Source of the DNA: Amphiscolops sp. MND2022
Taxonomy: Eukaryota
Direction of reading: 5' to 3'
Assembly (NCBI GenBank): GCA_964187785.1
Contig: OZ076409.1
Span: 44,580,001 to 44,644,000 of the forward strand
Length of the DNA stretch: 64,000 nt
Shown: positions 4,110-61,337 of the stretch, piece after piece
Layout: each line of letters begins with the position of its first letter
Numbering within the stretch: position 1 is the first letter of the stretch
Notes under the pieces: generated by a model
Told to the model about the DNA's origin: nothing
Databases searched by the model: none
Seen by the model: the letters and a program-made list of their open reading frames with translations, nothing else
Made by a program: the position numbers and the translations under genes

Positions 4110-4574
4110 CTGGAATAATTTCTTTACATAAGTTTGTTTTGAAAATTTGGCTCAGCTATTATAAATAGAAGTTGCTAGAGGTTTTGAGATGCAAGTGCGC
4201 AAATTTTTCATTTGACGCTCATTTTGTATTTTCTAAGCTGTTTTGTTTTACCGATTCAGGAGGCGGTTTACAGTACGAAAGAAAATGAAACATTTGGTTG
4301 CAGCGAATCAAAGTAATTCGGTTCGCAATGGGAAATTTGACATTTTGTTTGAATTTTAGCCCAAAATGACACTTATTGTGTTGTTGGAGACACCATTTGA
4401 ATTTTCTAGACTCATTGTTTTGGCCCTTTTTTGTTTTCCAAAAGCAAATGCTTTGACATTACCATTTTCTAAGGTTTTTAAATGGCTTTGTACTTTCCTT
4501 TATTGCAATACTCGGTAGTGTTTTCTTAAAATCCGTTTGGTTCTTTTGGGGGCTTTAAGAATTTGAAGATCTTC

Positions 4575-5470
4575 TGTTGGCGCCAGTCAATTGCGAGATC
4601 AGAAACTCAAATTCGAACGTGACTGATGAAACTTACAACTCAAAAGACTTAGAAAATTTATCAAGATTTTAGATGGAAAAATACAAGTCTAAGCAAAAAT
4701 GACCCTATGTAAAAAAGGGCCACCCCCCCGTCCCGGTAAACCACTCATTCAATCACCTTGAAACTTGGCACACATATAGTGGTGGTGCTTCCCTAACTTT
4801 TCACTCTTAACAAGCTACCCCGTATCTCCCCTGGGTTCAGAGCTATTAACACCCAAAGAGACCTAGGTCGGACCCCATGAATTACCCAATTTTTGATGTA
4901 TCAATTATTATGTGATTTTCTCATGTGACCTTGAAGGAAATGTAACTCTGTTGAAATTAATGATATTTACATTGTGTAAACATACTTTCTAACCCACCTG
5001 ACCAACATGCCAAAACCACCACATTGTTTGTTTACTTAGCCAATAACTTCATTTTATGCTTTAAATGTCATTTATTTATACCACATATTTCATCTGATAT
5101 TTGATCTATATTTACTGTAGAATTGTAAACCACATGTATACCATTATAAGAGAGAGACTTTAACGACTGAATAGCTGTAGTCAAGTTGGGTCTTAGGACC
5201 ATTTCAATTCTCAATTCATTTCTTCACCTCTTTTCGACTTTTCGCCAAAGACTTAGGGCGACTAAGTTAGTTACTCTCAACTTGTGGAGAGTTGGACGCG
5301 TTAAGAGACAAGGAAGAAGTGCAATTCGGGATCATTGGATCCTACTAAGTCAAGATACAGTCCTTTTAATCTAAGAAGCAAGCAGTGTTCGGTAACGATC
5401 CGCAGTGCCGAGCACCGAATTCAGGGCGGCGTAAAGCTTGGTCAATTGAAGGGATCAAGCAGCCGTTACA
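4575..5470 (+). repeat. 5' LTR (896 bp)
   Basis: TGTTGGCGCC...AGCCGTTACA; about 5 substitutions versus the 3' LTR, counted by eye. Confidence 0.97.
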
Positions 5471-5472
5471 TT

Positions 5473-5489
5473 TGGTCCGCCGACCCGGA
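5473..5489 (+). promoter_or_regulatory. Primer-binding site, probably tRNA-Tyr
   Basis: TGGTCCGCCGACCCGGA starts 2 nt after the LTR and resembles the TGGTCCTTCGAGCCGGA PBS typical of BEL/Pao elements. Confidence 0.8.
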
Positions 5490-6364
5490 CATCATCAGTG
5501 GGCGGACATCACATTGGGCGGACATCAACAGTTGGAGTGGACATCAGTCTGGGTGGACACTACAAGAGGAACGTCGTCTTCATTGTGTGTGGATAGCATT
5601 CGCGGTGGAAGACACGTGAGCAGTTAGAGTCATCAAACGGGTGACACAGCATCTATCTGTTCAAGTAACACGAAGCTTGGAAAAAGCTTCCGTGCTGGTT
5701 TCATTGGCAAACCAGAGAGCTGGGAGGACAAGCCTAATCGTAGGGACCTTCCGAACCCAGAAGTGGCAACAGGTGATCCTGTTCGCACAGCAATCAAAAA
5801 GTATTGCAAGAGTTGTCGCATTGCATTCGAACGGTATCGCGACAAGTATCTGAGACAACTATTCACGACGAACGAGAACTGTGGAGACTGGGTCTACAGT
5901 TGGTGATTGGAACTCTGGGAAAGTGTACACTGGGGCTTTGGTATTGGACTATTGGGCGATTTGGAACTGGATTGGTTGTGTACTCTGGGAGTTGGGCTTT
6001 AGCAGCACTCTGGAGGCAAGTGTGCTTCAATTCCAGTTTGGGACGAGTTGTATCCTTGGGAAACGTATTCCTAATTGAAAGCAAAGGTTTGAACTAAGAC
6101 GTCGCTGCAAGCATATCCACCAAGTAAAGCAAAAGGATCGAGTCATTGGGCGAGATCCACCGAAACAATCAAATCCGTCAAAGAAGGCAAGCATAATTGA
6201 CATTTTGGGTTGATTCTTCAAGAATTGGCGATTGATTACTGGGTTGAGCAGTTGACACCTCAGATCTATCAAATTGCTGTTTTTGGGAAAAGTGACAAAG
6301 ACGTCAAGAAACTATTGTGTAGTCAAAAAACCCCCAGTTAAACGACAAACTGAAATCTGAACAA

Positions 6365-9358
6365 ATGAAAGCCAGAAAGAAAGAAATGCTCGAGGTGCAA
6401 CATCCTCGAATGACAAATGTATTTGATCAAAGAAACACAAATCAGAGTCAAGAACTGATGGACCTCAGATCAAGAGATTTGGAAAATGATTCCGACTGGT
6501 ACGTGTGGCGCTTTTATGTGGACGCCGTGGCCACCCAAGTTGGAAGACTACGGACTCTGATTAAAGAGTTGGATGACAAGCTGGACGAGCAAGGCGCTAT
6601 TCTTCGCAAAGAGGAATTGAACGATTGGGTTTTCGAATATCGCGAGAATAAACAAGCATTGTTGCATAACGTAGATCTTATGTTGGACCTTACAAATAAA
6701 GAAAAGCAAAGACAGCTCAGTCGAAGTGTGACTGAATGGAAAGAATTCTTTGCTGAGTTAGAAGCCAGCTGGGGCTATTGGTTCCCAGATGTAAAGACAT
6801 TGATGAAGGGTCCAAAAGATGAGACAGACAAAACGAAACTTCGCCAAGAGGCAAGTGGAACCTCCACAAATGCGGCAATGAGATGCACTCAAACGAGGAA
6901 GCTCAAGCAAAGTAGCTTCAACCCGACAAAATGCAATTGCTCATTGGAAGTAGCTAGTGAAATGAAATCACTGGCACAATCAAGCAGGGTAACTGAAGAG
7001 GAACGACGCGTTGTTGGAGCATCCAACCCCTCTGATGTGATTAAATCAATCTGGGATGTGAAAGTGTTACCCGAAAAAAGCAACAAAGGGTCAGTCAAAG
7101 CAACCTCAAAGAGCAACAGAACAACAGCTAGTTCTAAGTCATCAAATGCAAAACGAATACTTCTTCTAGAATTGGAAGCAATGAAGAAACAAGATGAAAT
7201 TGATGAGCAGTTAGCTGCAGCAAGACGCAAAGCCGAGATCCGAAAGAAACAAGAGGAGATGGACATGAGGATACTCGCAGAAGAATTAGAAATTGCTAAA
7301 CTCGAAGAAGAAGCCGCTAGAGCCAAACAAGTCTTAAAAAACGACATGGATTCAGCGCGAAATGAAATGCAGCTAAAACTGACACAATCACAGAAAGTGA
7401 CAAAGCAGTTGCAACCATGCAAAGTTCCGCAGGATTGCTATCGGACTTTCAAGGCAATCTCGAACTCAACAAAGCCTCTTACAGGAGCGGAACTGCGTGA
7501 GCAAAGCGCTCACTCTCGGAACAACATGAATGAAGTGGCGAACAAAGAGTCACACCTGAGAAACAACAAAGAAGCCTGTTTTGGGCGAACTGATTCAAAG
7601 AGTATTGTTGGATCACATTGGCGCTCGAACCATAGAAGCGTTGAAAGTAGTTCAATGATGACAACTGTGAAGCAAACTCAACTAAGGCAAACTTCGAGCA
7701 AAGAAAGTTCAAGTGGTCGTAATGAATCGCTGAAAAGAAAAGACGACGTTTTGGGCAAGCAAGAAGAAATGGTTTTGCTCAAAACTCTTGACTGGACAAC
7801 AAAAGGAAAGTGTACAGTGAAAAAATGGAAACCTGAGCAGATGAAGTGTTCAGACAAGTGTCTAAACCATGGAAAGTTGCAAGACAAAACTATCAAACGT
7901 GAAGCGCTTGAAGACTCAAATATGACAAATGTTGAAAGTGATGCAAACAAAGAAACCTCGAAGCGTCTCACAGCAGAATGGATGTGGAACAGGCCAGAAA
8001 CGTTCGTTGTAGACAATGGCTGGCAAGATTTCCGTTCAGGAACCCTCCTCGTAGATACTCAACAAGTCTTGGAAGAAGAGACTCACTTGGTCATGAGTGA
8101 GCACTTGATAGTGCAAACAGAAGAGACCTTGGATTACACAATGACTGAAACTATGAAAGAACATCGAAGCTTAGCCTTCGCATCAAACAATGAAACTTCG
8201 GAAGAAATGAGTGTGCAATTGGAACTGCTGCAAGAGATGGCAGAAGTTTCGACCGTACTACAGGACGTGCGACAGGGGAAACTATTCCAAGTGACAGTGT
8301 CCTATGACATTACTCTACTCTTTGAAGAAGGAAACAAATGTTATGAATTTGTCAAAAGTTATGACTTTGTGAATGAGCAACGATATACACTGCCAGAAGA
8401 CTTGAATGAAATCGTCATGTATCAAAAGCTATGCCACGTTGCAATGAAACATGAAAAACCCGCGAAAAGCAATGCTAAAACGGAAACACAAGTCGTGAAT
8501 GCAACCTTTGGAAAGAAAACGGATTTCGACTTCAAGGAAAGTCTTTTAGAAGAAGCTAACCTGAGTCATAGAAATGTATGGAACCATTGGATTGGTAATG
8601 GAAACTCAGGGATGGACGCAGTGTCACAGGCTAACGACATTGACAAAACACAATTGAGCAAAGGCCACCGCAAGCAACTGAAGAAAAGAATTTGGAAGAT
8701 TGAACATAACTGGAACCTGATTCATGGAATGGAGGAAGGAGCTCAGTTGAACATGAATGGAACACCACAAGATGACACACTTTGGCTACATGATTTGACA
8801 GACAACGTATCAGTGACAAGAACGCAAATGTGTTCTTTGAAAGTACCAGCAACAAGTTCGACCAATGGGTCTTGCAATGGGCCGGCTACACCATTCATGG
8901 CTATGGGGACTCAGCATGGGTCTTTTGGTAAATTGGAAGTTTCTGCTGATCTATCGGAGCCAGTTAGAAACCTAGATGAAAAGAAATTGAAGTTTTGTAG
9001 TGAGAGAAGCACAGTGAATCTCTACAAACAGAAGCGGAAGCAAAACTCCACGGCATTGCAGTTGTTTGGAGAAAACTCGGATGTAGCTACGAAAAACGAC
9101 GTGTCTGTAAGTAAAGAGCAAAATGCAGCACAGCGACTGAGTTCAGAACACAAATCCCCTCCTATTGGATGCAAAGAGAGCATTGAACACAAAAGAAAAA
9201 ACTCCAGTCGCTGTAATGTTGGAAATTCTCTTTATCTATTGATGATGATAATGGATGACTCAATAATCTCTTCCGAACGCCAAATTGAAAGCTTGAGTAT
9301 GGAACGATTAGAGAACGAACTCTCTTTAACCTATCTCCCCGCGGTCAGTCAACTTTGA
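6365..9358 (+). CDS. 997-aa ORF1 of the LTR element; gag-like N-terminal coiled coil, no canonical pol motifs
   Basis: Uninterrupted ORF. A Ser-rich stretch is followed by an E/K/R helical segment (LELEAMKKQDEIDEQLAAARRKAE). No D(T/S)G, YxDD, CCHC knuckles or integrase DDE seen. Confidence 0.8.
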   Translation: MKARKKEMLEVQHPRMTNVFDQRNTNQSQELMDLRSRDLENDSDWYVWRFYVDAVATQVGRLRTLIKELDDKLDEQGAILRKEELNDWVFEYRENKQALLHNVDLMLDLTNKEKQRQLSRSVTEWKEFFAELEASWGYWFPDVKTLMKGPKDETDKTKLRQEASGTSTNAAMRCTQTRKLKQSSFNPTKCNCSLEVASEMKSLAQSSRVTEEERRVVGASNPSDVIKSIWDVKVLPEKSNKGSVKATSKSNRTTASSKSSNAKRILLLELEAMKKQDEIDEQLAAARRKAEIRKKQEEMDMRILAEELEIAKLEEEAARAKQVLKNDMDSARNEMQLKLTQSQKVTKQLQPCKVPQDCYRTFKAISNSTKPLTGAELREQSAHSRNNMNEVANKESHLRNNKEACFGRTDSKSIVGSHWRSNHRSVESSSMMTTVKQTQLRQTSSKESSSGRNESLKRKDDVLGKQEEMVLLKTLDWTTKGKCTVKKWKPEQMKCSDKCLNHGKLQDKTIKREALEDSNMTNVESDANKETSKRLTAEWMWNRPETFVVDNGWQDFRSGTLLVDTQQVLEEETHLVMSEHLIVQTEETLDYTMTETMKEHRSLAFASNNETSEEMSVQLELLQEMAEVSTVLQDVRQGKLFQVTVSYDITLLFEEGNKCYEFVKSYDFVNEQRYTLPEDLNEIVMYQKLCHVAMKHEKPAKSNAKTETQVVNATFGKKTDFDFKESLLEEANLSHRNVWNHWIGNGNSGMDAVSQANDIDKTQLSKGHRKQLKKRIWKIEHNWNLIHGMEEGAQLNMNGTPQDDTLWLHDLTDNVSVTRTQMCSLKVPATSSTNGSCNGPATPFMAMGTQHGSFGKLEVSADLSEPVRNLDEKKLKFCSERSTVNLYKQKRKQNSTALQLFGENSDVATKNDVSVSKEQNAAQRLSSEHKSPPIGCKESIEHKRKNSSRCNVGNSLYLLMMIMDDSIISSERQIESLSMERLENELSLTYLPAVSQL

Positions 9359-9897
9359 TGAGGAAATATGTAGCAGAGCAAATCTTGGGAAACTGTATGG
9401 AGACATTTTCGACTCATCTGGAAATCTTTTCTTTGGATGTTGAAGTAATTATGGAAGTCGAGTTAAATGTACTGAAGCAATTTTGTATCATACCTGTTAA
9501 AGGTTCAAGAGAAAAAGAATTGGTTGAACACAAAAAATGTCGGACGTTGACGATCAAGTTTGGGATAATAGGGAAAACTATCACTTCAAATGAGAGAACA
9601 GTTTTTTGGAAATATTTTGTTTTATGTCAACTTGTCGACAACAACTGTATGGTCAGGGAAATGGATTATGGGCTGGAGAAGCATTGCAGTAGAGAAAGAA
9701 CACAGCAAACAACTGGCAAACATGACTACGGTACAGAATTTCTCAGAAAGACAACGATGACTGATGACAATCTCAGACCACCAGTAGTGAGACTGGCACC
9801 CATGTTCTATGAAAGTGTTTTTCGGGAGAAAAACAAGGCCGGCAATGTTGGCGCCAGTCAATTGCGAGATCAGAAACTCAAATTCGAACGTGACTGA
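9358..9897 (+). CDS. ORF2 of the LTR element with a BEL pol C-terminal tail
   Basis: The ATG overlaps the ORF1 stop (TGATG, 9356-9360). The ORF ends LRPPVVRLAPMFYESVFREKNKAGNVGAS... and stops 52 nt inside the 3' LTR. Confidence 0.65.
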   Translation: MRKYVAEQILGNCMETFSTHLEIFSLDVEVIMEVELNVLKQFCIIPVKGSREKELVEHKKCRTLTIKFGIIGKTITSNERTVFWKYFVLCQLVDNNCMVREMDYGLEKHCSRERTQQTTGKHDYGTEFLRKTTMTDDNLRPPVVRLAPMFYESVFREKNKAGNVGASQLRDQKLKFERD

Positions 9898-10741
9898 TGA
9901 AACTTACAACTCAAAAGACTTAGTAAATTTATCAAGATTTTAGATGGAAAAATACAAGTCTAAGCAAAAATGACCCTATGTAAAAAAGGGCCACCCCCCC
10001 GTCCCGGTAAACCACTCATTCAATCACCTTGAAACTTGGCACACATATAGTGGTGGTGCTTCCCTAACTTTTCACTCTTGACAAGCTACCCCGTATCTCC
10101 CCTGGGTTCAGAGCTATTAACACCCAAAGAGACCTAGGTCGGACCCCATGAATTACCCAATTTTTGATGTATCAATTATTATGTGATTTTCTCATGTGAC
10201 CTTGAAGGAAATGTAACTCTGTTGAAATTAATGATATTTACATTGTGTAAACATACTTTCTAACCCACCTGACCAACATGCCAAAACCACCACATTGTTT
10301 GTTTACTTAGCCAATAACTTCATTTTATGCTTTAAATGTCATTTATTTATACCACATATTTCATCTGATATTTGTTCTATATTTACTGTAGAATTGTAAA
10401 CCACATGTATACCATTATAAGAGAGAGATTTTAACGACTGAATAGCTGTAGTCAAGTTGGGTCTTAGGACCATTTCAATTCTCAATTCATTTCTTCACCT
10501 CTTTTCGACTTTTCGCCAAAGACTTAGGGCGACTAAGTTAGTTACTCTCAACTTGTGGAGAGTTGGACGCGTTAAGAGACAAGGAAGAAGTGCAATTCGG
10601 GATCATTGGATCCTACTAAGTCAAGATACAGTCCTTTTAATCTAAGAAGCAAGCAGTGTTCGGTAACGATCCGCAGTGCCGAGCACCGAATTCAGGGCGG
10701 CGTAAAGTTTGGTCAATTGAAGGGATCAAGCAGCCGTTACA
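9846..10741 (+). repeat. 3' LTR (896 bp)
   Basis: Direct repeat of 4575-5470, preceded by purine-rich AAAAACAAGGCCGGCAA. Confidence 0.97.
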
Positions 10742-10781
10742 TCTTCGGTATTACTTCAAAAATATCAGCCAGAAAACGTAC

Positions 10782-12509: not shown

Positions 12510-12784
12510 CTAAACAAGCGAACAAGAAGCTGCATTTTCTAAACTCTATCGTGATTATTATTCTTTATCGAAGAAAACTAAGATCAAATTAGAAAATCTT
12601 AATTCTAGCATACTGATCTATGCTAAAACTGGAGTAAAGGGTACACTTTTTTTTGAATTTGGTTTCACACCAAAACTTTTGTTGTCGGAACGTAAAAGCT
12701 TCGAAATAGACTCTGATTACTAATTTATCAACCATTTTTATAAGCATTTAAGGTTTTAAAGTTTGGGGCAAATATTTATCATAC

Positions 12785-13675
12785 CGTCAGACATTTTTTC
12801 TGCAATATGATCTCCATTTTGGGTACTGTAACCAGATTCCGAAGACACTCGTAAGGGTCGCCTTCTTTGCCTATTGCATAATGCGCTGTTTTCAATCGGG
12901 CAAAGCTCATCCTCGTCACATGAGCTACAAGATGGTGCTCTCACTGGAACTTCAAGTACTGTCAGTTTAGCAGTGTTGTCAAATTGCTGGTTTGTCAAAC
13001 TTTTTTCTGAAGGTTGGTTGAAAAAATTCGGATTGCTGAATTTTTGGTCATTCGAGTCAGAAGTTTCAACTTCGAAGTCTTTATACAGGTCATTCGAAAT
13101 CTGCCTTTTAGCCGGATTAGGGTCTTCAGTGACGATTCTAACGTTTTCTTGGGAATATCCATTCAAGGTGAGATAAGAATCGGTTTGAAAAATGTTTCCC
13201 TGTGACGAATTCGAGGTCAAATCGTTGCTGGAGCAGTTTTGACACAATCGTGTCTTTAACACAAACCCGTTCTGAGTTTCAACTGGAACACTGTTTTGTC
13301 TTCCGGTGAACGAAAGCGAATCATCGTCGGAAATTATTTGTTGACTAACAGCATCAGCTTGTTTCCAATTTTCAGCACATTGGAGCAAACTTGTGGCATG
13401 ACGTAAGCACAGATGACTGGTTTGTTTTTGGTATCTGCGTTTCAGTCTCTCAAATTGAGTTGATCTGTTTTTGCATATCTGTTCCAAATAATTGAAGTTT
13501 GTTTCTGGCCACAGAAAATTGGATGATTGCGTATGACCGAAGTTTGAAGATTCCAAATATCTTCCTGTAATTGGCAGCTTCTTTGTTGCAAGGGAAGTTT
13601 CGTCTGTTTGTTTGTAGCTGCTGACTTCAAAATGACAAGTCGTTTTGTAAATTAAACGATCTTTTTGGGCTGAAT
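12785..13675 (-). CDS. Large 891-bp exon encoding a Ser/Asn/Gln-rich N-terminal extension of the SDR-like protein
   Basis: tctttttcag acceptor, gtatga donor, phase 1-1, open frame (part of ORF 12756-13760), phase-compatible with the next exon. Confidence 0.75.
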
Positions 13676-13738
13676 CTGAAAAAGAATAACAATTCCAAAG
13701 AAGAAATTTTTGATTGTGAACATTTGTTTCACTAATTG

Positions 13739-14493
13739 AAACAAGCCGGGACCGGTCCAAGTCGGCGCCCGCTCAAGTTTTTGAATATGCAAAGGAAACT
13801 GTTTTCAAAGTTTTATCACTTTCTCAGTGCCGAAAAATACCCCAAAAGATACGTATAAGACTCGAAAACCACATTTTCCCCAACTAGAAACAAAAAAAAT
13901 CAATTTTTCAAAAAAAAGATTTTTCCGGAAAAGTCTCATAGCGCCGAAATAGCAACTTTTATTTGAGCAAGTACCTTCTCTCAAGCCGAAATCCGCTATG
14001 AAAGGATGAAGGTACCCTTGGACGAAATCAAAATTTCAAAAAACGCACAGAGCCAAAAACGCTTTAGCAAAGGATGATAAAGTATTGAGAATAAAACAGC
14101 TGTTCGGTTAAGCTCAAAAAGAATATGGTTTCACAATACCGAAAAAGTCCAGAAGTGAACCTTTAAGCTTCAAATGATTTTGTATCAACTCTAAATATCC
14201 TAAAAATCAAAAGGGGACCCTTTTGTAAGATTGAAAAATTCTCCAAGAAACGTTATATCTGGTATACTTTATATCCAGAATTCGTTAAATCCGCTATGGG
14301 TTGTGTTTTGTCGAAGGACTCCTTAGCACTTTTTACAGCTCAAATGTAGTATGTAGATTGTCAAAAGGGACTTGCCAAAATTTAAGAACTTTTGGTAGAA
14401 CTATTTAGGACATTTCAGGTGTATCGGAAAAAAAACTGACGAAAAGCCATGACTATAGTCGACTCTTTTCTTCAGAAAAGCGCTGACTAAAAA
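13739..14493 (-). mobile_element. Helentron-like family 1 copy, intronic
   Basis: AACAAGCCGGGACCGGTCCAAGTCGGCGCC at the left and GCGCTGACTAAAAA at the right, i.e. the reverse complement of the 2559-3042 termini. Confidence 0.7.
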
Positions 14494-22900: not shown

Positions 22901-23349
22901 AAACTTCTGACCTCATACGCTGCTAATCATCAGGACTCAGCATCCAAATATTACTATAACACGATGAATGTAAAAATTGAAGTATTTTTTGAACTGTTCC
23001 TTGAAAACGGAGAAAATAAAGTTTAAGGAAAAGTTAGTTAGAAAGAATTCTGTTCCATTAAAAATCCTTGACAGCCAACCGTAAGATAATGTTAGGAGGC
23101 TTCGGCCTCTTTATGATTTCATTCTTATCCACCCTGTTTTTTTTAAAAAAAGTTTTGAATAACCAACAAATGTCCTGTTTTCATGCTTACAACGTATGGA
23201 GTGAAATTACTATGTTTTTTGTCTGTTTTGTGTTTTTGTTTCTTCACGAAATTCCGAGGAAAACTGTGTAGTACTGTCAACATAAGTTATGCAAGAGTTG
23301 GAAAACGTGCACATTTTTAATTTCGCATTCACAATTGTGATGTTGCATG

Positions 23350-26300
23350 TGCAACGGATTGATGTTTCCCGCCTCTATCACGTGTCGATCTTATGGGTGA
23401 TAACGATTGTGAGCGGACCAGTACAATCTTTTATCATCGGTGCGTTTCCCGGTGAAGTTTAGGGGAGAGTTTGATCTGAGACGATTTCTAAACTTTGATA
23501 TTCCTCCATCAAATATTCTGCTCTGTACCGTGGCGTTGTCGATCGGCTTTGGAGTCTTCGGGCTTTGGAGATGGTGATCATGTAAACCGACCCTCTGGTC
23601 TAGAGGTCCGGTCGCTTTGTTATTTTGCTCCTGTTCAATTTCAGCAATTGGGTTACTGATACTTTTCCTATCTGTTATTTTGCCATTTGAAGTGGTAATC
23701 GTGTGTGTCCTGTTCGATATTGCTATTTGTGGTGTAATGCTATTTGTGTGGTTGTCTACCTTGGGTGTTCCTAAAGGATGCAGTTTCGAATGCTAACATC
23801 AGGGTACTTTCAAGGAAGAAAAAACTTTATTTAGAAACTCTTTTTTTATTTTTCTTCAAATTGGTGAAAACTGGGCAGTCATATCGACAACTCCATTGAT
23901 TGAGTATACCCTCAAGGTATCAGGTTTTGCTGAAATGTTTTCTAATGTAAGTTTTTCAAGTTTTTCTAGTTTCAGCAAGTTCCTTATTTCCGCATTAGGT
24001 TTCCGTCCATAATGAAGTTCCACAGGCGATTTTCTCAGCCTCGTGTCGGGCGATTTTCTCATTACTTCCAGACGGGTAACCATAGCTTTGCCGAATATTT
24101 CTCCTGCTTTGACAATAGTGAGTACAGTTTCTTTCGAAGCTGAAACTCTTCGTTCTACCAGGCCCGTAGGGGTGTGTAAAGACGGTTTTCTTGCAACCTT
24201 CTTGGAAAAAATGGCCCGTGGGAGTGTTTTTGTCCGTTTTAATCGTTTTCAGTACCGCATTTAGTTGGATCTACTGTTCGAGAAATCCTACGGCCGTTTC
24301 TCAGTCTGTTGTTCTACAAAAACGTTCAGCCATTCACTAAGACGGTCAATTAACAATAGGTTATAAAACCGGTGATTGTTCTCCGTGATTGGTCTGATGA
24401 AATTCAATAGGATTTCTTCGTTTGGACTATTCAGTGTTAGTATTTTGTTTTTTTTCCTGGTACGTTAGTTATAATGTACTCACCTGACATTTTGCAGATG
24501 ATGCAGCTATCTTATTTCATCTGAAATGCTTGCTTCTTTTTTGGCCAACAAAAGTGGCCTGCTTAGAGTGACATCTCGTTGATCGCGGGAAGGAGGCGTA
24601 TCATTGTGGTTAGGATATCCTTCCACAGAACTAGTTTGTCTTCAATGAAGACCAGACCGAACCTGCTTTTTTTGCTTGATACTCTTCGGGTATCACTTCG
24701 TGGTGTTGTCGTTCCAATCACACTAGTGTCTTCAGCAGAAATGGATCGGTGGTAGGTTCGGTCATCAATAGCTGCAATCCTGCAGAAAAATATTTTCCTT
24801 CAGGGTTTCGACGAGCTACCAGTTCGGTTTTGACAACATGGACACTTTTTACGCAACGTATGGTGGCCAGCTGACAGCTGGCACTTCGTGAATTGCCATG
24901 TCTTAATCCGTCTCAAGGTCGAGATCTCCGTTTTCCATGAGAAACGATATAACCTGGTTTTGCTGGTTACATCGGATTGGGGGGTTGATTGTCTTTTTCG
25001 GCCGTCATTTAACTGTATTGACTTTGGTGTTGGTGTCTCCGTCTCCCAGAATCGGTCCACAGTTCTGATGATTTGTTGTGATCGCACATCGATTGCTTTT
25101 TGTTCATTTATGAGCTTTGGTTCGTAGTACCTCTTCCGTCTCCCTCCGGTGATGCGGTAAAAGCCGCGGGCTTTACAAGTTTCCTTCACCTTTTGATCAA
25201 TTCTGTTGTCCTACCAGATGAATCGACAACCTCAAAATTATCTATCAATTTGCATCCTCAGAAACGATTAAGTGTGGAGTGTTCGATTTAACGCGGGCGT
25301 TCGCTAAGTTGATAAGGCAATCAATGGTGGTTTGTTCACGCGCGACAGCCAACTGACGTTGGTTGTTTGTTTTTTGCTAGCACCCGTCTGTTTCGTTTTC
25401 TGTTCCGTCTGGTCGGTATGATTGCTTGTGCAACCGTATTCGGAGATAAAATGTTATTGCGGTGGAATATTGTTGATGACGTAGGCGTCTTCTGTTAGCT
25501 GCTGCTGTGTTGTCGGATCTTCTGAGGTAACCCGTTTGTGCTTAATGTTTACCGGCTGTATGGCTCACAATAATAATGAAGTGTGCTACTCAGTCCAGAT
25601 ATCTTGTTGTTCGTGCGCTGTATGTTTAATTGGACCGACTCAGTCCAATCAACGGCTCGAGTGGTTGGTTATCCGTAAATTGTTTTATCGGTTCACCTTA
25701 GATGTTCAGGCGAAATTTTTCTAAACCCCCACTACTGCTAGTAGTTCGAGTTCATTTGTCACAATTTTTGTCGTTGTCTGATGGGAAATTGCTGGCACAT
25801 ATTATTGCTTTAGCCTTCCATCGGATTGCTCCTTCCATTATTTTGCTCCACTGCCTTTGGGACTGACGACTGTTGTTATGATGTTCCGGGAGTTTCAATT
25901 ATAGTGAGCCATAGACGGTCTTCCGTGTTTTTTTGTTCAGTATTTTGAAGTTTGAGTTGAAGTGTTAAGTTGATGAAGTTTGTCTTCAGTATTCATTTTA
26001 CTGGTGAACGACTGTTTTTGATTAATTTTTCTGTGAGCGTTGTTAACCGTCGAGGTCTTCGTGTTGAACTCCGCACTTTTGTTGCTTGTTGGAGCGTCGA
26101 ATGGATTTTTGCTTTTATTGATTGGATGGTGTCTTGTGACCAATTGTCTTTTCCATCCCAACGCTGCTTGTTGTTTCTTCTTTTATAGATTCACCCTTTT
26201 ACTGGATCGACAATTTTTTTGCAAAAATGTCCTGTTTTCTGATTTCGCGCATTTTGTCCCTTTGGCAGGGGTTTCATGTTGTCGCGATCAATTTGGGGCC

Positions 26301-27200
26301 CCGCAACTGTTACCATCTTTATTTAGAGAATTTTACTGGTTTCTCGACAAGGTCTTTTCATGGGGTTTGTTTTTTTCTGCTGATGTAACAAATTGTTTCC
26401 CTCTTCTGTCTCTCGTGAGTCATTCAGTTTTTCGTACATGTACTTGTGTATGGCATCGATTATTGCCTCCATCGACATGGCATTTTTCCTAACATCTTTC
26501 ATAGTCACCGTTTGGCTTTCAAACAAGGGATAAAATTTTTGATGTTAGTGTTTCGGCTGCGGTACGTGTCTCGTGTTCGCTTTTTTTTTCGAAGAAACCT
26601 TTCCAGATATCCACTGCAGATTCTTCATTTTCTCGTTTAAGGTCAAAAACATCTGCTATGTTGGAGGTTTCTCTCTGGAGTAAGAAGTAGGAGAAAAAAT
26701 GCTTATAGCTTGTGTAACGGTGGTGAACTTCTCGTTTCTGTCAAGCCGTGATAGCGTTTTGTCCAGTCTCCCATAAAATACATCTTTTATTTCAGTATCC
26801 AGTTGTTCACGGTGTTTTGGCAGTATTTTTGTCCTGTTTGCTTTGGTTCACAGGTCCATTTCTTTCGTCCTATATTCTTATGTATCGTACAAACTTTTGC
26901 TATTATGGGTGTGATATTTTTTGTCGAGCGTTGCAAGAAGAAGTTTCTGGGTACAAGTCCGGTATGTCATACCGTTCATTGTGCCTTCGGGCAGCAGGTG
27001 TCCATTTGTCAGTGATCCTCCTGTCATCAATGTTGACTTTCCATTTCGTTTGTCGCTCCATTTCGTTGTTTTGTTCTTGTGTTACCTTCCACTGTATGTT
27101 TCGTTGTTCGAAGTGTATGATGATGTGATGTTACTTCAATGGTTATTCTGACTGCACCATGTTGTATTTTGTCGTCTCTTAGTGGAAGAAGAACGTTAAG
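23350..27200 (-). mobile_element. Decayed Ty3/Gypsy pol region
   Basis: RNase H-like NELELLAVV(W)GLEKFRL near 25705-25757; integrase-like LHTPTGLVERRV near 24145-24180 and KSPVELHYGRKPN near 24000; RNase H lies upstream of integrase. Confidence 0.7.
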
Positions 27201-29408: not shown

Positions 29409-32400
29409 CTGAGGTGCCAACATTGGAAGATGTTCTTGAGAAACAAAAAAACTGAAAAGCCACAAATGTGGACTGTTTCTAAATTTCTTCCTTCTTATGC
29501 AAAAAAAATTAAAATTCAAAAAACACTTCGTCTTGATTAGGCGTATGGTAACAAAAACCAAGTTTTTCACGAAAAATATCTTTAATTAATTTAGGTTAAA
29601 AAAGTAATCATATTTTAATAAAATGATGTTTATGATATCAATATTTTCAAGTATACACATTTGTTAACAATGTTGTAGGTTAGGATATATTATATTTTGC
29701 TAACTATATTTATGTGTCAAAATATTCATTTATGTTTAAAAAAATTAAAGTCTAAATGGTTGGGACTAACCAGGTGAGTCACGTTTGTGAAGTTTGATGG
29801 GGTAGATTTGAGTTCAGAAAATTAGCTTGACTTTAAGTCGAGCTAAATTTGGATGTGTAAAGACCAAAAAGTTGTCTCTTATTATTCAGCTGACAAACAT
29901 TGAAAGTTTCTATGATTAGTTCTTTTGCCCAAAAAAAATTGGAGAACCTGAAATGAACTTTCAGCGCACATCATGCATCGTGCATAATATTACTATTTCG
30001 TCCTCGATTTTGCATTTTTTGTTCAAAATAAAATTAGTCATAAGTGAGACAGCACGGACATTTGCGACTTGAGTGGTGATCTCTGCTATCTAAAAAAATT
30101 AAAGGCGAATGTATCAACAATAAAATGTAATACGTTTTGATTTTCCAGATGAAAACAGTAGCATGTATGCAATATGCGCACTTCAAAAACGCAACCGTTT
30201 GAGACTAGTAAAAAAACTGGTCACTTCATTGCTCCAACGCTTCAACACCAAAGGAGACTATGTTCCACGCTAGAGATTGTCGGCAAATTTGATGATTAAT
30301 TCAAATTTACACCATGGAGTTACTCAAACAGCTCGTTATTATCTTTACCATAATTATGTGCTCCCGAGCTCAAATTACAGGTTGGAAATTAACATGGTGC
30401 TTCCGAGCTATCGAACCATTGAAAAACCGTAGTTTAACTTAGTATTTTGGGAGTGACAACTTGACAATTTAAGTGTTTTATTTTTTATTTTAATGCTAAC
30501 GAACTGTCCAAAAAATGTGAAATATTTCAGAGTGAAGAATTTACAATGGCGAAGTTTCCGGGAACAGAAATTTCAGGAACGCAACCACAAATAGAGCTTT
30601 CAGAAAACAGTTATTTTGAAAACACATAGTATTTTTTCTCTCACAACTTGTGAGGAAGTTACAGAGGGGTGAGTATGCGGTTAAACCTATAGTTTAAAAA
30701 AGCTGTGTACGGTATATGAAAGTACATTAAGCTAAAGCACAAAAAGTGGAAGTTCCATCTATCAGCCTACTTTTGAAAAACTTCCAGAGACAATGCCAGA
30801 AACTATTCACAGGGGGACCCTTTGGATTCAATAAGGCTCATTTCATGAATACATGGATAAACTGGACGAGGGGCAGTTTCTTAAAAGTAGAAAAACTAAA
30901 AAAACAGCTGAAAAACCATCAGGGTCTTATGAACCAATTTAGATTAAAATAGCTTTGTAATTCCGATAAAAGCGCAAAATAATGATAGAACTGGTTTTGT
31001 ACACTATTTTATGTTACAATTGAAGTTGTCATTGCTTGGATAATTAGAAGAAATTTATACAGGATACTCGGGGCAATGATTGAATGCGATGTTCACTCCA
31101 TTTTCTTTTGCTCGTTGAAGGTTTTCTAATTGCACTGAGGTGCCAACATTGGAAGATGTTCTTGAGAAACAAAAAAACTGAAAAGCCACAAATGTGGACT
31201 GTTTCTAAATTTCTTCCTTCTTATGCAAAAAAAATTAAAATTCAAAAAACACTTCGTCTTGATTAGGCGTATGGTAACAAAAACCAAGTTTTTCACGAGA
31301 AATATCTTTAATTAATTTAGGTTAAAAAAGTAATCATATTTTAATAAAATGATGTTTATGATATCAATATTTTCAAGTATACGCATTTGTTAACAATGTT
31401 GTAGGTTAGGATATATTATATTTTGCTAACTATATTTATGTGTCAAAATATTCATTTATGTTTAAAAAAATTAAAGTCTAAATGGTTGGGACTAACCAGG
31501 TGAGTCACGTTTGTGAAGTTTGATGGGGTAGATTTGAGTTCAGAAAATTAGCTTGACTTTAAGTCGAGCTAAATTTGGATGTGTAAAGACCAAAAAGTTG
31601 TCTCTTATTATTCAGCTGACAAACATTGAAAGTTTCTATGATTAGTTCTTTTGCCCAAAAAAAATTGGAGAACCTGAAATGAACTTTCAGCGCACATCAT
31701 GCATCGTGCATAATATTACTATTTCGTCCTCGATTTTGCATTTTTTGTTCAAAATAAAATTAGTCATAAGTGAGACAGCACGGACATTTGCGACTTGAGT
31801 GGTGATCTCTGCTATCTAAAAAAATTAAAGGCGAATGTATCAACAATAAAATGTAATACGTTTTGATTTTCCAGATGAAAACAGTAGCATGTATGCAATA
31901 TGCGCACTTCAAAAACGCAACCGTTTGAGACTAGTAAAAAAAACTGGTCACTTCATTGCTCCAACGCTTCAACACCAAAGGAGACTATGTTCCACGCTAG
32001 AGATTGTCGGCAAATTTGATGATTAATTCAAATTTACACCATGGAGTTACTCAAACAGCTCGTTATTATCTTTACCATAATTATGTGCTCCCGAGCTCAA
32101 ATTACAGGTTGGAAATTAACATGGTGCTTCCGAGCTATCGAACCATTGAAAAACCGTAGTTTAACTTAGTATTTTGGGAGTGACAACTTGACAATTTAAG
32201 TGTTTTATTTTTTATTTTAATGCTAACGAACTGTCCAAAAAATGTGAAATATTTCAGAGTGAAGAATTTACAATGGCGAAGTTTCCGGGAACAGAAATTT
32301 CAGGAACGCAACCACAAATAGAGCTTTCAGAAAACAGTTATTTTGAAAACACATAGTATTTTTTCTCTCACAACTTGTGAGGAAGTTACAGAGGGGTGAG

Positions 32401-32863
32401 TATGCGGTTAAACCTATAGTTTAAAAAAGCTGTGTACGGTATATGAAAGTACATTAAGCTAAAGCACAAAAAGTGGAAGTTCCATCTATCAGCCTACTTT
32501 TGAAAAACTTCCAGAGACAATGCCAGAAACTATTCACAGGGGGACCCTTTGGATTCAATAAGGCTCATTTCATGAATACATGGATAAACTGGACGAGGGG
32601 CAGTTTCTTAAAAGTAGAAAAACTAAAAAAACAGCTGAAAAACCATCAGGGTCTTATGAACCAATTTAGATTAAAATAGCTTTGTAATTCCGATAAAAGC
32701 GCAAAATAATGATAGAACTGGTTTTGTACACTATTTTATGTTACAATTGAAGTTGTCATTGCTTGGATAATTAGAAGAAATTTATACAGGATACTCGGGG
32801 CAATGATTGAATGCGATGTTCACTCCAATTTCTTTTGCTCGTTGAAGGTTTTCTAATTGCACT
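29409..32863. repeat. Near-perfect tandem duplication of a ~1727-bp unit
   Basis: 29409-31136 versus 31135-32863; identical ORFs at 30746 and 32473; about 3 substitutions and 1 homopolymer indel seen; CT microhomology at the junction. Confidence 0.95.
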
Positions 32864-33399: not shown

Positions 33400-36300
33400 C
33401 CTCAATGTCTGCTTCTATCAGGTGATGTTGAATTATATCCTAGTTCAATAAAATTTCTAACTTTTAATTGAGCAATTCACTAAAAACAAGAAGCAACTGA
33501 AACTCTTCCATCTAAACTGTCAAAGCATGTTGCACAAAAAGCACAGGTTGAATCCAATACTAGCAATCTTGGAGAAGACTGTATTTATGGTTTCACCGAA
33601 ACCTGGCTGAAAAATTGTGACGATGAAACGTTTTGGCAACTGATACAAGATCACTTCAAAACTTACCAAGCAGATCGCCAGCTAACCACGAAAATAAGAG
33701 GCGGTGGGGTAAAGACAACTGTGCCGAAAAATCTCAATCTAAAGTCAAGAAAAGATTTAATTCAAACTGATGAGAATTATTTTCAGAATTCATGCATAGA
33801 GCGTAATTTACAACTGATGTATGAAAGAAAGAAACAATTGATAAATGGGAGTTATAGCTCTAACAAAGTTGTTCATAATACTTTTCTCGAAGAACTATCG
33901 ACAGGCATAAATTATGCAGTAACCGAAATGAAACCCATAATGTTAATGGGTGACTACAATTTGGACTACCTCAAAAGGAAAGAGAAGTTAAGACACAGTT
34001 TTGTACCTTATGGAATAAACATCACGTACATTATTATTCGTGTATCTACAAGAGTATCAGGCAATTGGAAATATCTACTCGATTATATAATTACAGATCT
34101 ACAGGAAGTTAAACGAGTCTATCTTTCCGATACCCGCCTAACAACAATCCGGGGACTTTTGTTTTGCGACCTCTCTCATCACGTAAATTAGAATGCATCG
34201 AACTCCCAAAGTTACACTCAAAGAACTTTTCGATAAAACAGGCTACAGAGTTGAAGAGCTAAGAAACTTGATTAGTAACATCAATTGATGTTTGTTTTAT
34301 ATTCAAACTTCTGCCTAAAATTTCCACAGATATTCTAGAAAAAGCATTAGGGCGAGGTGCACGCGAAAAAATCTTTTTCGTTAAAAACGATAAAAGCAAG
34401 GTAATCAAGATGACACAAATGGATAAAGTAGAAATCAAGAAATTTGAAACGGGAAATTGACTGACTATAGCATGAAACCACAGTCCCTAACCCACCAACA
34501 AAATCAAAATGACTTAGAAAAAATTAAATCTAATCGTTCAGATTTTCAAAATAAAGACTTCAATAATATGAAATCTAACGTGACAGATAGAATTTCGTTA
34601 CCGAGGACAGCAACAGCTAACGACCGAAAATAGAAAAACTCAGTCTGAAAAACCGTTTCGGTTACAGAATCACTGACCAAAAACGAATTCCGAACTCACT
34701 GAGCCACTGATTTTCTAAATTAGGAGAGTATTTTAATAGAATACAAAACAATAATAAACAAATCAGTCTTCTGTCCACAAGCTTCATTTTCTTACATATG
34801 CTGCAAAAGTGTACTTTCCGTAAAACGAGAGCAAATCTCTCAAAAAAACGAACCGTTGGGCCAATCTGACACTCCAGCTTGTGCATTGAAAGTTTCTTTG
34901 AAAATATGAGCTGAACCGCTTTGCTTCATAATTGATGTCGGTATTGAAAAAAGTGAATTTCTAATCACCTACAACAAGCAAATTTTATACCGATTCACGA
35001 GAAAGGTGACAAGGAAGATCCTGATAATTGCAGAAAAACAACAATGTCACCGTCCGTAGCAAAAGTGTTCAAACAAGAACAACTGAACGAACACCTTGAA
35101 AGGATCAACTTACTCAAACAATTGCAATTTGGTGTCAGAGCAAAATATTTTACCACGGATGCTTTACACTGCGCTATGGAAAATATAAAAAAGACCTAGA
35201 TGCCAGTCGAATCAAAGTGGCACCTTTTTTGGACCAAACAAACGCATTCTGTTCGATGTCTCATGAAATCCTTTCAGAACATGGCATCATCTTAACTCCG
35301 GTGGAAAGGTCATCAAAATGATAAAGACACCAAATGGTTGAATTCTCAAAGCTCAGATTGGATTCAACTTTGCCGATGTGTTCCAAAAGGACACTTGTGG
35401 AACCACTTGTTGTTTTCTACATCTATGGTAATGACATGCAGCAATCTGTTATTGAAAACAGTAATGTAATCCAGTATGCTGATGATACAATGATCTTCAG
35501 TTAACATAACGATTTTACGGAAGCTTGCAATAATTTACAGCAAACAATATAAAACTTAGTCATTTTCTTCGATTTACACCAATTAACAATCAATCCGAAC
35601 AAAAAAGAAATTGTTTGTTTTTGAAAACCAACAAAAAACAATTTTGCCAGAAGTCACACCTTGAAAGTTAAAGATGAGATAAAAAAATATCAACAACTGT
35701 GAAATATCTAGAAGTTTATCTAGATCACAATTTGAAATATCAAGATGATGTGAAAAAATGGCTACTGGCACCAAAACACTGTAAGCTATACGTGATATAT
35801 TTCCAACTGTGACACGATTAATAACACTCAGTGGCTACTTTCCAGTCACACACCTTTTCAGCTGTCGTTTTAACTATTGTCGGTGGAAACTTGACTTGAA
35901 CTCTCGAAAAACAGTTCAATTGAGCAATTAAAACTTTGACCATTCAACAGATCTCAAAATTCGACGTAAAATCTTTCCCGTTCGCTGTTTTTACAATTAC
36001 AAACACCATTTGTACCTTTGGAAATCTAAAATAGTGTAATTCCAGCTTCTAATAGAAAGCTACACTTACTGACTACTAAACCACATGTCACATAAAAGAA
36101 CACCAATTGAATAATCAGATACGACAATAAGATAGGAGTTTCTACTCAAAGAATATTTCAAGAGAACATTACCCTTGCGGACGACCCTGCTGAGAAACAT
36201 GATCCGGAAGAAATGTTTATACAAAACAATGAAAAAAAGAATCAAGTCTTTTCATTTCCAAAAATACCTAAAATGAAAAGACCGACCGCAATAAATGGAA
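33400..36300 (+). mobile_element. Decayed CR1/L2-type LINE ORF2 (APE endonuclease plus RT)
   Basis: LLLSGDVELYPS; GFTETWL; RGGGV; LMGDYNLD; LLDYIITD; PIHEKGDKEDPDNCR; QFGVR; QYADDT (YADD 35475-35486); frameshifts and stops. Confidence 0.9.
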
Positions 36301-47778: not shown

Positions 47779-50225
47779 AATAGCAACGCGGTGTGATTTT
47801 TAGTAATATTCAATGAAATAGCAACGCGGTGTGATTTTGAGTACAGTAGCCTTCTAAAATAACGCAACCTCATTGCATAAAATAGCAAATTTCAAATCCA
47901 AATATCTCGTAAACTGTCACAAATACAAAAAACTGTCAGCTAGGAAAGTTTCTTAGAATTCTATTTAGTTTACAAAAATGTTTGTTTGAAATTTCTACGA
48001 CCCTTACTGAAAAAGTTAGAATTTTCAATGTTTTGTTTTCATTAGATTAGGACTTCGTTAGCCGAGTTTACTGGCTCTAGTTTTACTTCTTGTCCGCTTC
48101 CAAAGCTTCTCTGTTGGCTAATACCCTCTTTTTGAAAAACACGAATATTTGTGTAATACATAATTCATTTTCCTCTCTCTGCGCGTTTCTCGGCGTTTAC
48201 GAAACCAGAGTTGGTGGACCTAGACCCCCTTTTTTACTAGGCCTTGGTGGGACGGTCTACGTTAACTCAAACAATTTAGAGCTTTGTACAGAAAATGACT
48301 GTATATGAAAAAATTAATTGATCATCTAAATACAAAAATATATATGAAAAGGTCAAATCAACAAGTTTCTTCTGTTGAAGCAGTAGTGAAAGAGTGGCTC
48401 GAGAGGGCTTATAATTTCTTCTTTCTGCTGTACTGGATTTGATTTGAGGGGTACTGGTTGTGTTTAGAGCTGAGCCCTAAAAGGCTTAAGAAGCTAAAAG
48501 AAGAAGATTATTGTTCGGTCTCCAGATGTCATCGAAAATGATCTCTTCATCGTACGTGTTTTTTTGTGTAACTTCGTACTTTGTTTTCCCGTTGGGGTAG
48601 AACACTTTGCAGTAGTAGCAAAACCCAACTTTGCGTGGGGTATTCGACTTTCCATGTAATTTAATAACTGCGTTTTCGCTGTTTTGTGAGATGAGTTTAT
48701 CCATTGACCTGGCAAGAGAGGCTGATTGATGGCAGAATGAGAACAGAAGGAGGCGAGAGATTGAATGATGACAAAAAAGAATAGAGACTGGATTGTTTGA
48801 GTTTGTTTGGCAACAATGAAAGAAATGTAATTGAAAGCCAAACTTTTTGGTTAATCCTTATTGGTTGAAATACTGCTTTGATGTCAGAATAAAGTTATAT
48901 TAAAGTGTTTCGTTCTAATTATTTAATTGTAAATGGCTTTTACCATGCCGTCTTTTTCAAAGGTAATTGTATTTTGTCATTAATTGCGCAAAATGCCCCC
49001 TCCCCAAGCGACCGCAAGGGAAAAAAAGACACAAGGTTTAATTCTGACTGTATTGTAGTACGTCAAATTTTAGTACGAAAAAGACGGCATGGTAAAAGCC
49101 ATTTACAATTAAATAATTAGAACCAAACACTTTATTATAACTTTATTCTGACATCAAAACAGTATTTCAACCGATAAGGGTTAACCAAAAAGTTTGGCTT
49201 TCAATTACATTTCTTTCATTGTTGCCAAACAAACTCAAACAATCCAGTCTCTATTCTTTTTTGTCATCATTCAATCTCTCGCCTCCTTCTGTTCTCATTC
49301 TGCCATCAATCAGCTTCTCTTGCCAGGTCAATGGATAAACTCATCTCAGAAAACAGCGAAAACGCAGTTATTAAATTACATGGAAAGTCGAATACCCCAC
49401 GCAAAGTTGGGTTTTGCTACTACTGCAAAGTGTTCTACCCCAACGGGAAAACAAAGTACGAAGTTACACAAAAAAAACACGTACGATGAAGAGATCATTT
49501 TCGATGACATCTGGAGACCGAACAATAATCTTCACGTTAAGCCTTTTAGGGCTCAGCTCTAAACACAACCAGTACCCCTCAAATCAAATCCAGTACAGCA
49601 GAAAGAAGAAATAATAAGCCCTCTCGAGCCACTCTTTCACTACTGCTTCAACAGAAGAAACTTGTTGATTTGACCTTTTCATATATATTTTTGTATTTAG
49701 ATGATCAATTAATTTTTTCATATACAGTCATTTTCTGTACAAAGCTCTAAATTGTTTGACTTAACGTAGACCGAGAAACGCGCAGAGAGGAAAATGAATT
49801 ATATATTAGAGAAGCTTTGGAAGCGGACAAGAAGTAAAACTAGAGCCAGTAAATTCGGCTGACGAAGTCCTAATCTAATGAAAACAAAACATTGAAAATT
49901 CTAACTTTTTCAGTAAGGGTCGTAGAAAATTCAAACAAACAATTTTGTAAACTAGATAGAATTCTAAGAAACTTTCCTAGCTGACCGTTTTTCGTATTTG
50001 TGACAGTTTACGAGATATTTGGATTTGAAATTTGCTATTTTATGCAATGAGGTTGCGATATTTTAGAACGCTACTGTAATATTCAATGAAATAGCAACGC
50101 GGTGTGATTTTGAGTAATATTCAATGAAATAGCAACGCGGTGTGATTTTGAGTAATATTCAATGAAATAGCAACGCGGTGTGATTTCCAGGTAATATTAT
50201 ATGAATTAACTACGCGGTGTGATGT
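47779..50225. repeat. 38-bp minisatellite split by the foldback element
   Basis: Unit AATAGCAACGCGGTGTGATTTTGAGTAATATTCAATGA at 47779-47843 and 50077-50225, with a further unit near 47374. Confidence 0.85.
47844..50076. mobile_element. Foldback-type Tc1/mariner-like element with ~1.0-1.1-kb inverted arms
   Basis: Arms 47844-48958 and 49077-50076; 118-bp spacer; CAGTAGC termini; TA TSD confirmed by uninterrupted neighbouring minisatellite units. Confidence 0.92.
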
Positions 50226-58671: not shown

Positions 58672-59329
58672 CATTGACCCCCTTTCTATTGAACTTTGGT
58701 GGAGCGGGCAATAGGTGGGACATAAAAGGTGGGACCTCCTATGAGACAGTGAAAATTGACAAAAATGGTGCCGTTGTAAGTTCGCCATATTTAAGTTCGC
58801 CACGTATAAGTTAGCCCGTAAAACTTAGCCACGTTTAAGTTAGCCACCATATAAGATCGCCACGTTTATTTTCGCCACATTTCAGCTAATATTGATTTAT
58901 TTGAAAAAGTTTGCATATTTGTTGTATGGCTCGGTCGCTTCGCTTCCTTCGCCAAGTAGCAACATTGAGGCATGGCCATATGGCACGTCGCTCCGCTTCG
59001 CTTCGCTCCTGTATATAGGGCACTAGGGGTATGTGAACATACGATCTCGAGTCCGAAAATTATTCTTGCACAAAATAAACATTTTTACAATAAAAAAGCT
59101 GAATTAGGGAGAAAGTTTGCTACTTGGCAATCGGACCATTATAATGTAACGCCATGTCTCATCTGACCCAAAGTAATTAAATAATGTCGACTTTAATATT
59201 ATTGATTTTTTGCTACTACTAGTTATTTCAATTTAATTTTCCGTGGGACTTGTTCTTTCGACACGCAGAATAGTTAATTTTAATTAAATACCTCGATGAA
59301 GCAAAATAAGAAAAAATAAATATAAAACA

Positions 59330-59870
59330 TCTCAACAATCTTTCGGATATGTTTTCATTATCGTCAGATGAATTTCGAGAAGGTACATATAAATGCTTTT
59401 CTATGTAGGAAGATTGAATATCCGCAATTTTTTCAGGTGTTGTTTCATCAGAAAGGTCTTCTTTCAATGTTTTTCCATACCATTTTTGAAACTCATTCAA
59501 GATTTGTGTTTGTTCTGTAAGTATTTCGCCTTTATCAATTTTCAGCAATTTGATGTTGTTTTTATTACGTCTAGAAGCTAACATATTTTTCAAAGCCTTC
59601 GGATCACCTTCATTCACGTCAGACAAAATAATATTCTCCAATTGGGTTACTTTCGAGAACAAACTCTTCTCATGTTCATTTCTCTCTCGCTTAACTTGAA
59701 TGCTAAGGTTTTTGAGAGAGCTCCGTAAACGAGTTTTGAATAACTCATATTGACTGGAAGTTATAGATTTCATTTTGTTCAAGTAGAAGTTCAAAACGTT
59801 CGAAAATTTATCTTTATTTTGCAGCACTGAGTGATCTAGTGACGTCATCGGTGAGCTCATATGCAGAAAG
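59330..59870 (-). mobile_element. L1/Tx1-type ORF2 fragment (linker between endonuclease and RT)
   Basis: YELFKTRLRSSLKNLS...RRNKNNIKLLKIDKGEILTEQTQILNEFQKWY pattern. Confidence 0.55.
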
Positions 59871-60293
59871 TAATTGAACGGACACCATTGACTCTGTAAA
59901 AGGCTGCTGGTTATTCGCGGGAAATTCGCGGTAATTCGCGCCACGATTAACCAGCAGGCCTGCTGTGTATATAAATTCTAATTATTTCACTGTAAATAGG
60001 GGACTATAGCTCAGAGCAACAGCTTCCGCTTGTTGGTATCACCGAAGTTAAACAACACTTAGGAGGAGGGTTCATTGGCATCTTTGTGATCATATCTGTA
60101 GATATCATAGCTGGCTCTGAGCAACTGTCCCCATTTTGAAAAATTTTGAAACAAAAAGAGTTCATTTTAAATATCCAAATATCTTTAAAACTGTCACTGT
60201 TGAATGTGAACTGTTGTCAGGGGTACCGCAAAAATAATTCATTGTGGAATTAATGGCCATAAATATTTAATTTTTTGGGTCTTCCATAAAAAT

Positions 60294-61137: not shown

Positions 61138-61337
61138 NNNNNNNNNNNNNNNNNNNNNNNNNNNNNNNNNNNNNNNNNNNNNNNNNNNNNNNNNNNNNNN
61201 NNNNNNNNNNNNNNNNNNNNNNNNNNNNNNNNNNNNNNNNNNNNNNNNNNNNNNNNNNNNNNNNNNNNNNNNNNNNNNNNNNNNNNNNNNNNNNNNNNNN
61301 NNNNNNNNNNNNNNNNNNNNNNNNNNNNNNNNNNNNN
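61138..61337. other. Assembly gap (200 N)
   Basis: Run of N. Confidence 1.

Follow-up and report, generated by a model that had tools for sequence, protein, structure and literature searches.

A young enzyme-less BEL/Pao family that keeps a long, largely novel reading frame open, with strong evidence for selection on its translation in cis

The element at positions 4575..10741 of the window, the whole 64,000-nt stretch of Amphiscolops sp. DNA analysed here, is an enzyme-less BEL/Pao derivative and a copy of a family, family A, with at least 150 young copies in the genome. A nonsense deficit among the changes shared by copies, domain-wise amino-acid constraint and an AUG-free leader together provide strong evidence, drawn from comparison of the copies, that translation of the family-A ORF is probably selected in cis. 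Family A is a young non-autonomous BEL/Pao derivative and, to judge from the termini that it shares with complete relatives, is likely mobilised by them in trans. The reading that we prefer, at a probability of about 0.5, is that the protein made from each RNA would tether that same RNA to helper Gag through its N-terminal domain and coiled coil, and that the open tail of the frame would block decay. LTR elements that lack autonomy are commonly regarded as passengers, either non-coding or in decay. The copies of family A instead amount to a natural mutation screen, which shows selection in a family without enzymes for the openness of a long and largely novel frame and separates the ORF parts where amino acids matter from the parts where only translation matters; translation-packaging coupling in LTR elements, and competition of retrotransposon parasites for helper particles, thereby become testable.

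The element and its complete relatives

All BEL/Pao structural hallmarks (TG..CA LTRs, 5-bp target-site duplication, tRNA primer-binding site and polypurine tract) are present in the element. Its two LTRs on the + strand (4575..5470 and 9846..10741, 896 nt each, both TG..CA) carry exactly 5 mismatches, the 5-bp duplication TCTTC flanks both element ends perfectly (4570..4574 and 10742..10746), and the primer-binding site (PBS; 5473..5489, +) is complementary to the 3′ end of a host tRNA, so that the recent insertion features named in the original prediction, nearly identical LTRs, a perfect duplication and an intact PBS, were all borne out. The 5′ LTR combines a U3 of helper type 1 with an R/U5 of helper type 2 and includes a TATA-like TATAAG at 5145. 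The PBS, identical in the helpers, matches an intron-containing tRNA with a GTA anticodon, arrayed in the same genome, which is read from this anticodon as a probable tRNA-Tyr. A tandem array of such intron-containing tRNA genes, with a period of ~212 nt, runs from G000:C6:56171527 onward (L179) and matches the PBS; the tRNA pattern has 209 matches genome-wide, and among the matches listed most lie within this array.

The ORF (6365..9358, +) is 997 aa long in this copy and about 1178 aa family-wide, the family frame terminating inside the 3′ LTR. An open frame of 3 kb was rightly considered unlikely by chance (~1e-29 from base composition), and the other two sense frames across the region contain 75 and 69 stops. 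The description of this ORF as intact was wrong for this copy, in which a frameshift near codon 992 (~9340) cuts the family frame to 997 aa, the remainder of that frame lying at 9289-9897. An inherited frameshift was considered and rejected, since its sole other carrier (L144) ranks 84th of 95 in identity. On the + strand the family frame comprises a novel N-terminal domain (N-domain, aa 16-148; 6410..6808), predicted to form a helical bundle and also found in sister family B; a coiled coil originating from the gag of helper type 2 (7106..7350); a family-A insert with unconstrained amino acids (7352..7954); a filler module found in several derivatives in place of RT-RH-IN, with the frame maintained (7967..8734); a family-A extension, frameshifted in this copy (8762..9762); and the last 44 codons of helper pol, the end of DUF5641, running into U3 (9763..9897). 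The 44 residues of this pol remnant (9763-9894) overlap the polypurine tract (PPT; 9824..9845, +), which is common to the helpers.

The helpers were located via the shared 34-nt PPT/LTR junction, which has 494 exact matches in the genome; the first 30 comprised 11 A-type 3′ ends, 8 B-type, 1 chimeric and 10 with an integrase, that is, 20 enzyme-less derivatives and 10 integrase carriers. An unbroken gag-pol frame of 2133-2140 aa was present in three of the eight integrase-bearing copies fetched. The helpers fall into type 1 (L096/L098) and type 2 (L099). Scanning one helper of each type recovered DUF1759, protease, RT, Peptidase_A17, integrase and DUF5641 in full, and the two types are separated by a deep split with synonymous sites saturated. 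Family A and the helpers have the same PBS, PPT and LTR ends, with LTR blocks 89-92% identical, and helper ORFs, like that of family A, end in U3. The short flanks of the ten best Peptidase_A17 loci contained nothing that matched the element at the DNA level. Complete helpers sharing the PBS, PPT and LTR ends, the autonomous partners that the original prediction had proposed to look for, are present in the genome, and the proposed non-autonomous BEL/Pao lineage was upheld, both the termini and the coding remnants tracing to complete BEL/Pao elements and the enzymes being absent.

As had been claimed, the ORF lacks catalytic motifs, CCHC, D[ST]G, YxDD and HHCC all being absent in frame, and a Pfam scan of the 997 aa returned 0 families. 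The gag capsid (DUF1759) and zinc knuckles are absent from the family-A ORF, as are protease, RT, Peptidase_A17 and integrase, all four of which are present in the helpers. Only two parts of the family-A protein match the helpers, namely the gag coiled coil (helper type 2; 65-67% amino-acid and 77-81% nucleotide identity) and the final 44 residues of pol, and ~85% of the ORF is without detectable helper homology. Three short "pol echoes" had been taken as the only faint remains of pol. Compared with the pol proteins of two helpers, with random ORF windows as the null, they were matched by 21-46% of random windows in five of six comparisons; in the sixth only 1.3% of random windows scored as well, and the match lay at an unrelated place. 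That claim had also overlooked the two real helper remnants, the coil at 7106-7350 and the pol tail at 9763-9894, and the idea that the ORF derives from pol by decay and scrambling was not sustained, pol homology being undetectable in repeated comparisons.

The filler appeared RT-like by eye, and a degenerate pol was considered as its origin and rejected, because in profile tests against eight helper gag-pol segments, shuffled or reversed sequence did at least as well; comparisons of the filler with helper pol by hhalign, tblastx and nhmmer (best E 0.095) were likewise all negative. Searched against 1.84 billion representatives, the filler had 167 hits, the best 150 of the 167 being mostly short fragments, and 8 hits inspected look like relatives of the same elements; beyond these the filler has no known homologue. 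Derivation of the N-domain from the N-terminus of helper gag by divergence was also rejected (hhalign probability 0.2%), and the N-domain had no match among proteins of 1746-4985 aa, which is weak evidence. An ESM Atlas search gave no usable match. In the AlphaFold2 model, aa 16-148 form a helical bundle and aa 259-349 a long helix, with pLDDT mostly 65-83 in these parts; the N-domain model was moderate (mean pLDDT 60, pTM 0.40), with nothing at E<=0.001 in fold searches of the PDB and BFVD, and the filler model was poor and unreliable.

A genome DNA search yielded 34 scored candidates, all spanning the whole internal region at 90-100%, and an N-domain search yielded 700 candidates, of which 150 were scored, with identities of 83-100% throughout. 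Of the 96 family-A copies compared, 44 are open over at least 1140 codons and 67 carry a perfect 5-bp target-site duplication, 8 being without one and 21 not having both ends found; the median identity of 94 LTR pairs is 99.2%. Sister family B (~900 aa; at least 51 copies, L041-L065 among them) has the N-domain and middle filler of family A, a coil and leader of helper-1 type, and DUF5641 at its end; by eye, a decayed start of a helper-2 coil can be seen just 5′ of its helper-1 coil. Graded derivatives with the same termini also occur (L112 to L115): L112 (G000:C1:5315400-5322900) has gag, protease, filler and DUF5641 in a single 1454-aa frame, L113 has capsid, filler and DUF5641, and L114 and L115 are shorter or chimeric. 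L112 and L113 thus keep more gag (DUF1759) than family A, with the filler replacing RT-RH-IN in frame.

Several other features were seen in the window. A 338-aa open frame at 12756-13772 (-), ~2 kb from the element and without a Pfam match, is a possible host exon. A decayed retroelement-like fragment with an A-rich minus strand lies at 23000-27000 (-), and decayed frames that look endonuclease- or LINE-like by eye lie at 33484-34191 (+) and 59228-59977 (-); a Pfam scan of two frames among the decayed retroelement-like fragments gave no match. A 1729-nt tandem duplication of 99.8% identity at 29409-32863 is either very recent or an assembly artefact, long nested inverted repeats at 47842-50078, with arms 97-99% complementary and flanked by 38-nt repeats, are foldback- or MITE-like, and an N run at about 61140-61340 interrupts an acidic open frame (61095-61718).

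Frame openness and amino-acid constraint across copies

Changes among the 96 copies were divided into private ones, seen in one copy and mostly post-insertion, and shared ones, seen in several copies and passed through replication. Over codons 1-1140, counted per codon column with no tree, which is a heuristic under recombination, the private changes, which look neutral, comprised 44 stops and 1384 others, and the shared changes 0 stops and 1030 others, against 32.7 stops expected at the private rate (P 6e-15). The deficit extends to the insert (0 shared stops vs 7.1 expected) and the extension (0 vs 12.1). The copies sampled were the best-matching ones, and one pair among the 96 shares a flank. 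An alternative reading is that a few young masters amplified and their best-preserved copies were sampled. The young LTR pairs (median 99.2%), the fetching of only top-scoring copies and the choice of open frames for the maximum-likelihood (ML) sets would all fit such inertia or ascertainment. We regard it as very improbable, because 1030 shared substitutions include not one stop, the divergence between copies reaches 10% or more, and the deficit holds separately in two subsets: 0 shared stops were found vs 12.8 expected in a DNA-picked subset of 30 copies, and 0 vs 15.2 in 60 copies picked by the N-domain only and thus regardless of the 3′ ORF. Moreover, the leader, read as codons in three frames as a control, showed no such deficit, with 5-19 shared stop changes vs ~5-6 expected. 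The family-B counts (0 shared stops vs about 12-14 expected) were set aside, because a protein search had picked those copies.

Indels followed a similar pattern: 51 private frameshifts vs 23 private in-frame events, and 14 in-frame types (107 copies) vs 6 frameshift types (19 copies) among the multi-copy indels. The multi-copy frameshifts sit in or beside single-base runs, and their carriers were nearest neighbours in none of eight pairs checked. A stop at codon 1150 is present in 4 copies, and the chimeric copies L107 and L109 share an end ~125 codons early; the 3′ end of the ORF is dispensable and late truncation is tolerated. Upstream of the start, no sense ATG occurs in the 1228 nt formed by the 3′ part of the LTR and the leader (5137..6364, +), compared with 22 on the antisense strand (18.8 expected). 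Over the 850 nt compared, 70 of the 96 copies have no upstream ATG, and a single one is common to 16 of the 96. An AUG-free leader is as expected if ribosomes scan to the start.

Amino-acid constraint was assessed by comparing omega for changes in >=3 copies with that for singletons. From singletons to changes in >=3 copies, omega fell from 1.01 to 0.34 in the N-domain (p 0.003), from 1.35 to 0.43 in the coil (p 0.002) and from 1.31 to 0.63 in the filler (p 7e-4), and changes in >=3 copies gave 1.13 in the insert and 0.9-1.0 in the extension. The ML estimates, from sets selected for open frames, agreed with these values, at 0.35-0.44 for the N-domain, 0.36 for the coil, 0.66 for the filler, 1.35 for the insert and 0.81 for the extension. 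Helper capsid, RT and IN are far tighter (ML omega 0.06-0.12) and the family-A coil (0.36-0.43) is under weaker constraint than the helper coil (0.13), the N-domain being comparable to the helper gag N-terminus (0.41). Across the A/B split, the N-domain retained an omega of 0.29-0.31 at a dS of about 0.77. The ~700 codons outside the N-domain, coil and filler drift freely, and the frame there is still open.

The nonsense deficit and domain-wise constraint establish the ORF as being under selection, as originally proposed. The original prediction had offered a remodelled protein and mere frame openness as two options, and each fits a different part: the first the N-domain, coil and filler, where amino acids are constrained, and the second the rest, where openness alone is kept. 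HMM searches found no Pao domains in the ORF and sister copies did not show neutral ORF disruption, the two outcomes that it had named as speaking against it. A cis requirement is suggested by the sequence data because, if the protein acted in trans, copies with a stop could be carried along by their open sisters, of which there are dozens.

Could translation be all that is selected, ribosomes having to come close to the 3′ LTR if the RNA is to be stable or properly localised, with a partnerless protein whose weak amino-acid constraint merely avoids toxic or stalling products? The ~700 codons at omega near 1 without shared stops and the tolerated late truncations would agree with this, as would the nucleation of Ty1 assembly sites by translating RNA, as described in the part of the source consulted (PMC3945221). 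We consider it somewhat unlikely, given that constraint falls mainly on two predicted helical domains, where it lasts over the A/B split, and that the coil protein was kept while its synonymous sites diverged.

Module exchange and candidate roles of the protein

A helper-2 U5 accompanies a helper-2 coil in 96 of 96 A copies, and a helper-1 U5 a helper-1 coil in 27 of 28 B copies, the remaining one being without a U5 in the fetched stretch; thus, coil type tracks U5 type in 123 of 124 copies. U3 types are split 48/48 in family A, and the U3 (window 4575-4938), unlike the U5, has been exchanged freely among A, B and the helpers. Such free exchange implies that particles bring together RNAs from both pools and that helper matching is not strict. 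Between A and B, dS is 0.74-0.80 in the N-domain and 0.43-0.47 in the filler, compared with saturation between helpers 1 and 2; with the modules of A and B much closer than the helpers, the N-domain and filler moved between helper backbones. Each lineage kept the coil matching its 5′ RNA end, and comparison of the family-A coil with that of helper 2 (dS 0.87-1.17, dN 0.2) indicated that the protein is conserved and the RNA sequence is not. Plain physical linkage of U5 and coil may explain part of this pattern.

In the combined account that we prefer, the N-domain and helper-type coil, which come first in the nascent chain, are predicted to bind helper Gag while still joined to their own mRNA. 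The Gag-bound chain would then pull its own RNA into helper particles in a co-translational form of packaging, and the unconstrained 3′ part would stay open because early termination might destabilise or mislocalise the RNA, for instance by nonsense-mediated decay. Without a capsid or zinc knuckles, the family-A protein is not itself a particle subunit in the usual way. Several observations count against this combined account, namely the tolerated 3′ truncation, the free U3 exchange, the weak coil constraint, the upstream ATG shared by 16 of 96 copies and the lack of a match for the N-domain fold.

A cis-acting job unrelated to Gag, such as RNA export or anti-silencing through the N-domain with the coil as a self-oligomerising stalk, would suit a domain that is the most constrained, not detectably helper-derived and present in both A and B backbones. 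It appears improbable to us, since neither an RNA-binding domain nor any other known domain or fold emerged from Pfam and fold searches of the family-A protein, and coil type follows U5 type almost throughout. Tethering to Gag could be extended, tentatively, to a satellite class of LTR elements with their own particle-entry adaptor, in which the N-domain and a helper-matched coil would dock the RNA on Gag, several hundred sequence-free codons would serve as translational tether and decay shield, and modules would recombine between helpers.

Comparison with known systems

Among titles and abstract beginnings of the open-access literature, no comparable BEL/Pao family was found, and repeat databases may already catalogue family A. 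In the parts of the sources consulted, neither the non-coding non-autonomous elements of PMC3286476 nor the BEL/Pao elements with a captured viral glycoprotein of PMC7642597 matched it. Plant TR-GAG elements, as far as the source was consulted, are non-autonomous LTR elements with an ORF at the gag position and without enzymes, which retain GAG or GAG/protease domains, whereas family A keeps only a ~90-aa gag coil and no GAG domain (PMC13570524); L112 and L113, with DUF1759 retained, fit TR-GAG as so described better than family A does. In Ty1, the proteins are reported to show no cis-preference, which counts against a cis model for family A (PMC3945221).

The autonomous BEL/Pao (Belpaoviridae) helpers (L096/L098, L099) resemble family A in PBS, PPT, LTR ends, coil and pol tail, and differ in their 2133-2140-aa frame with DUF1759 through DUF5641, domains that family A is without. 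A further parallel is offered by those defective-interfering RNAs of positive-strand RNA viruses whose frame has to stay open, with selection acting on cis translation and not on the encoded sequence. They belong to another replication system, and in family A the protein is partly constrained too.

The closest known system to family A, within the part of the source consulted, is mouse IAP 1Δ1, a non-autonomous element that is more active than its helper and has a gag-pol fusion reported to be cis-acting and to help retrotransposition (PMC6466679). Both have a single in-frame ORF from the gag position to the pol end. As would be expected of a cis-acting fusion of this type, family-A copies losing the frame appear not to be propagated, which is read indirectly from 0 shared stops vs 32.7 expected. 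As described there, native gag and pol were joined in IAP 1Δ1 by a simple deletion of 1.9 kb; the cis requirement of family A is read from copy variation and not from an assay. The family-A ORF is not an in-frame deletion of native gag-pol, most of it having no detectable gag-pol homology: its capsid is absent, and its modules have been swapped between two helper backbones.
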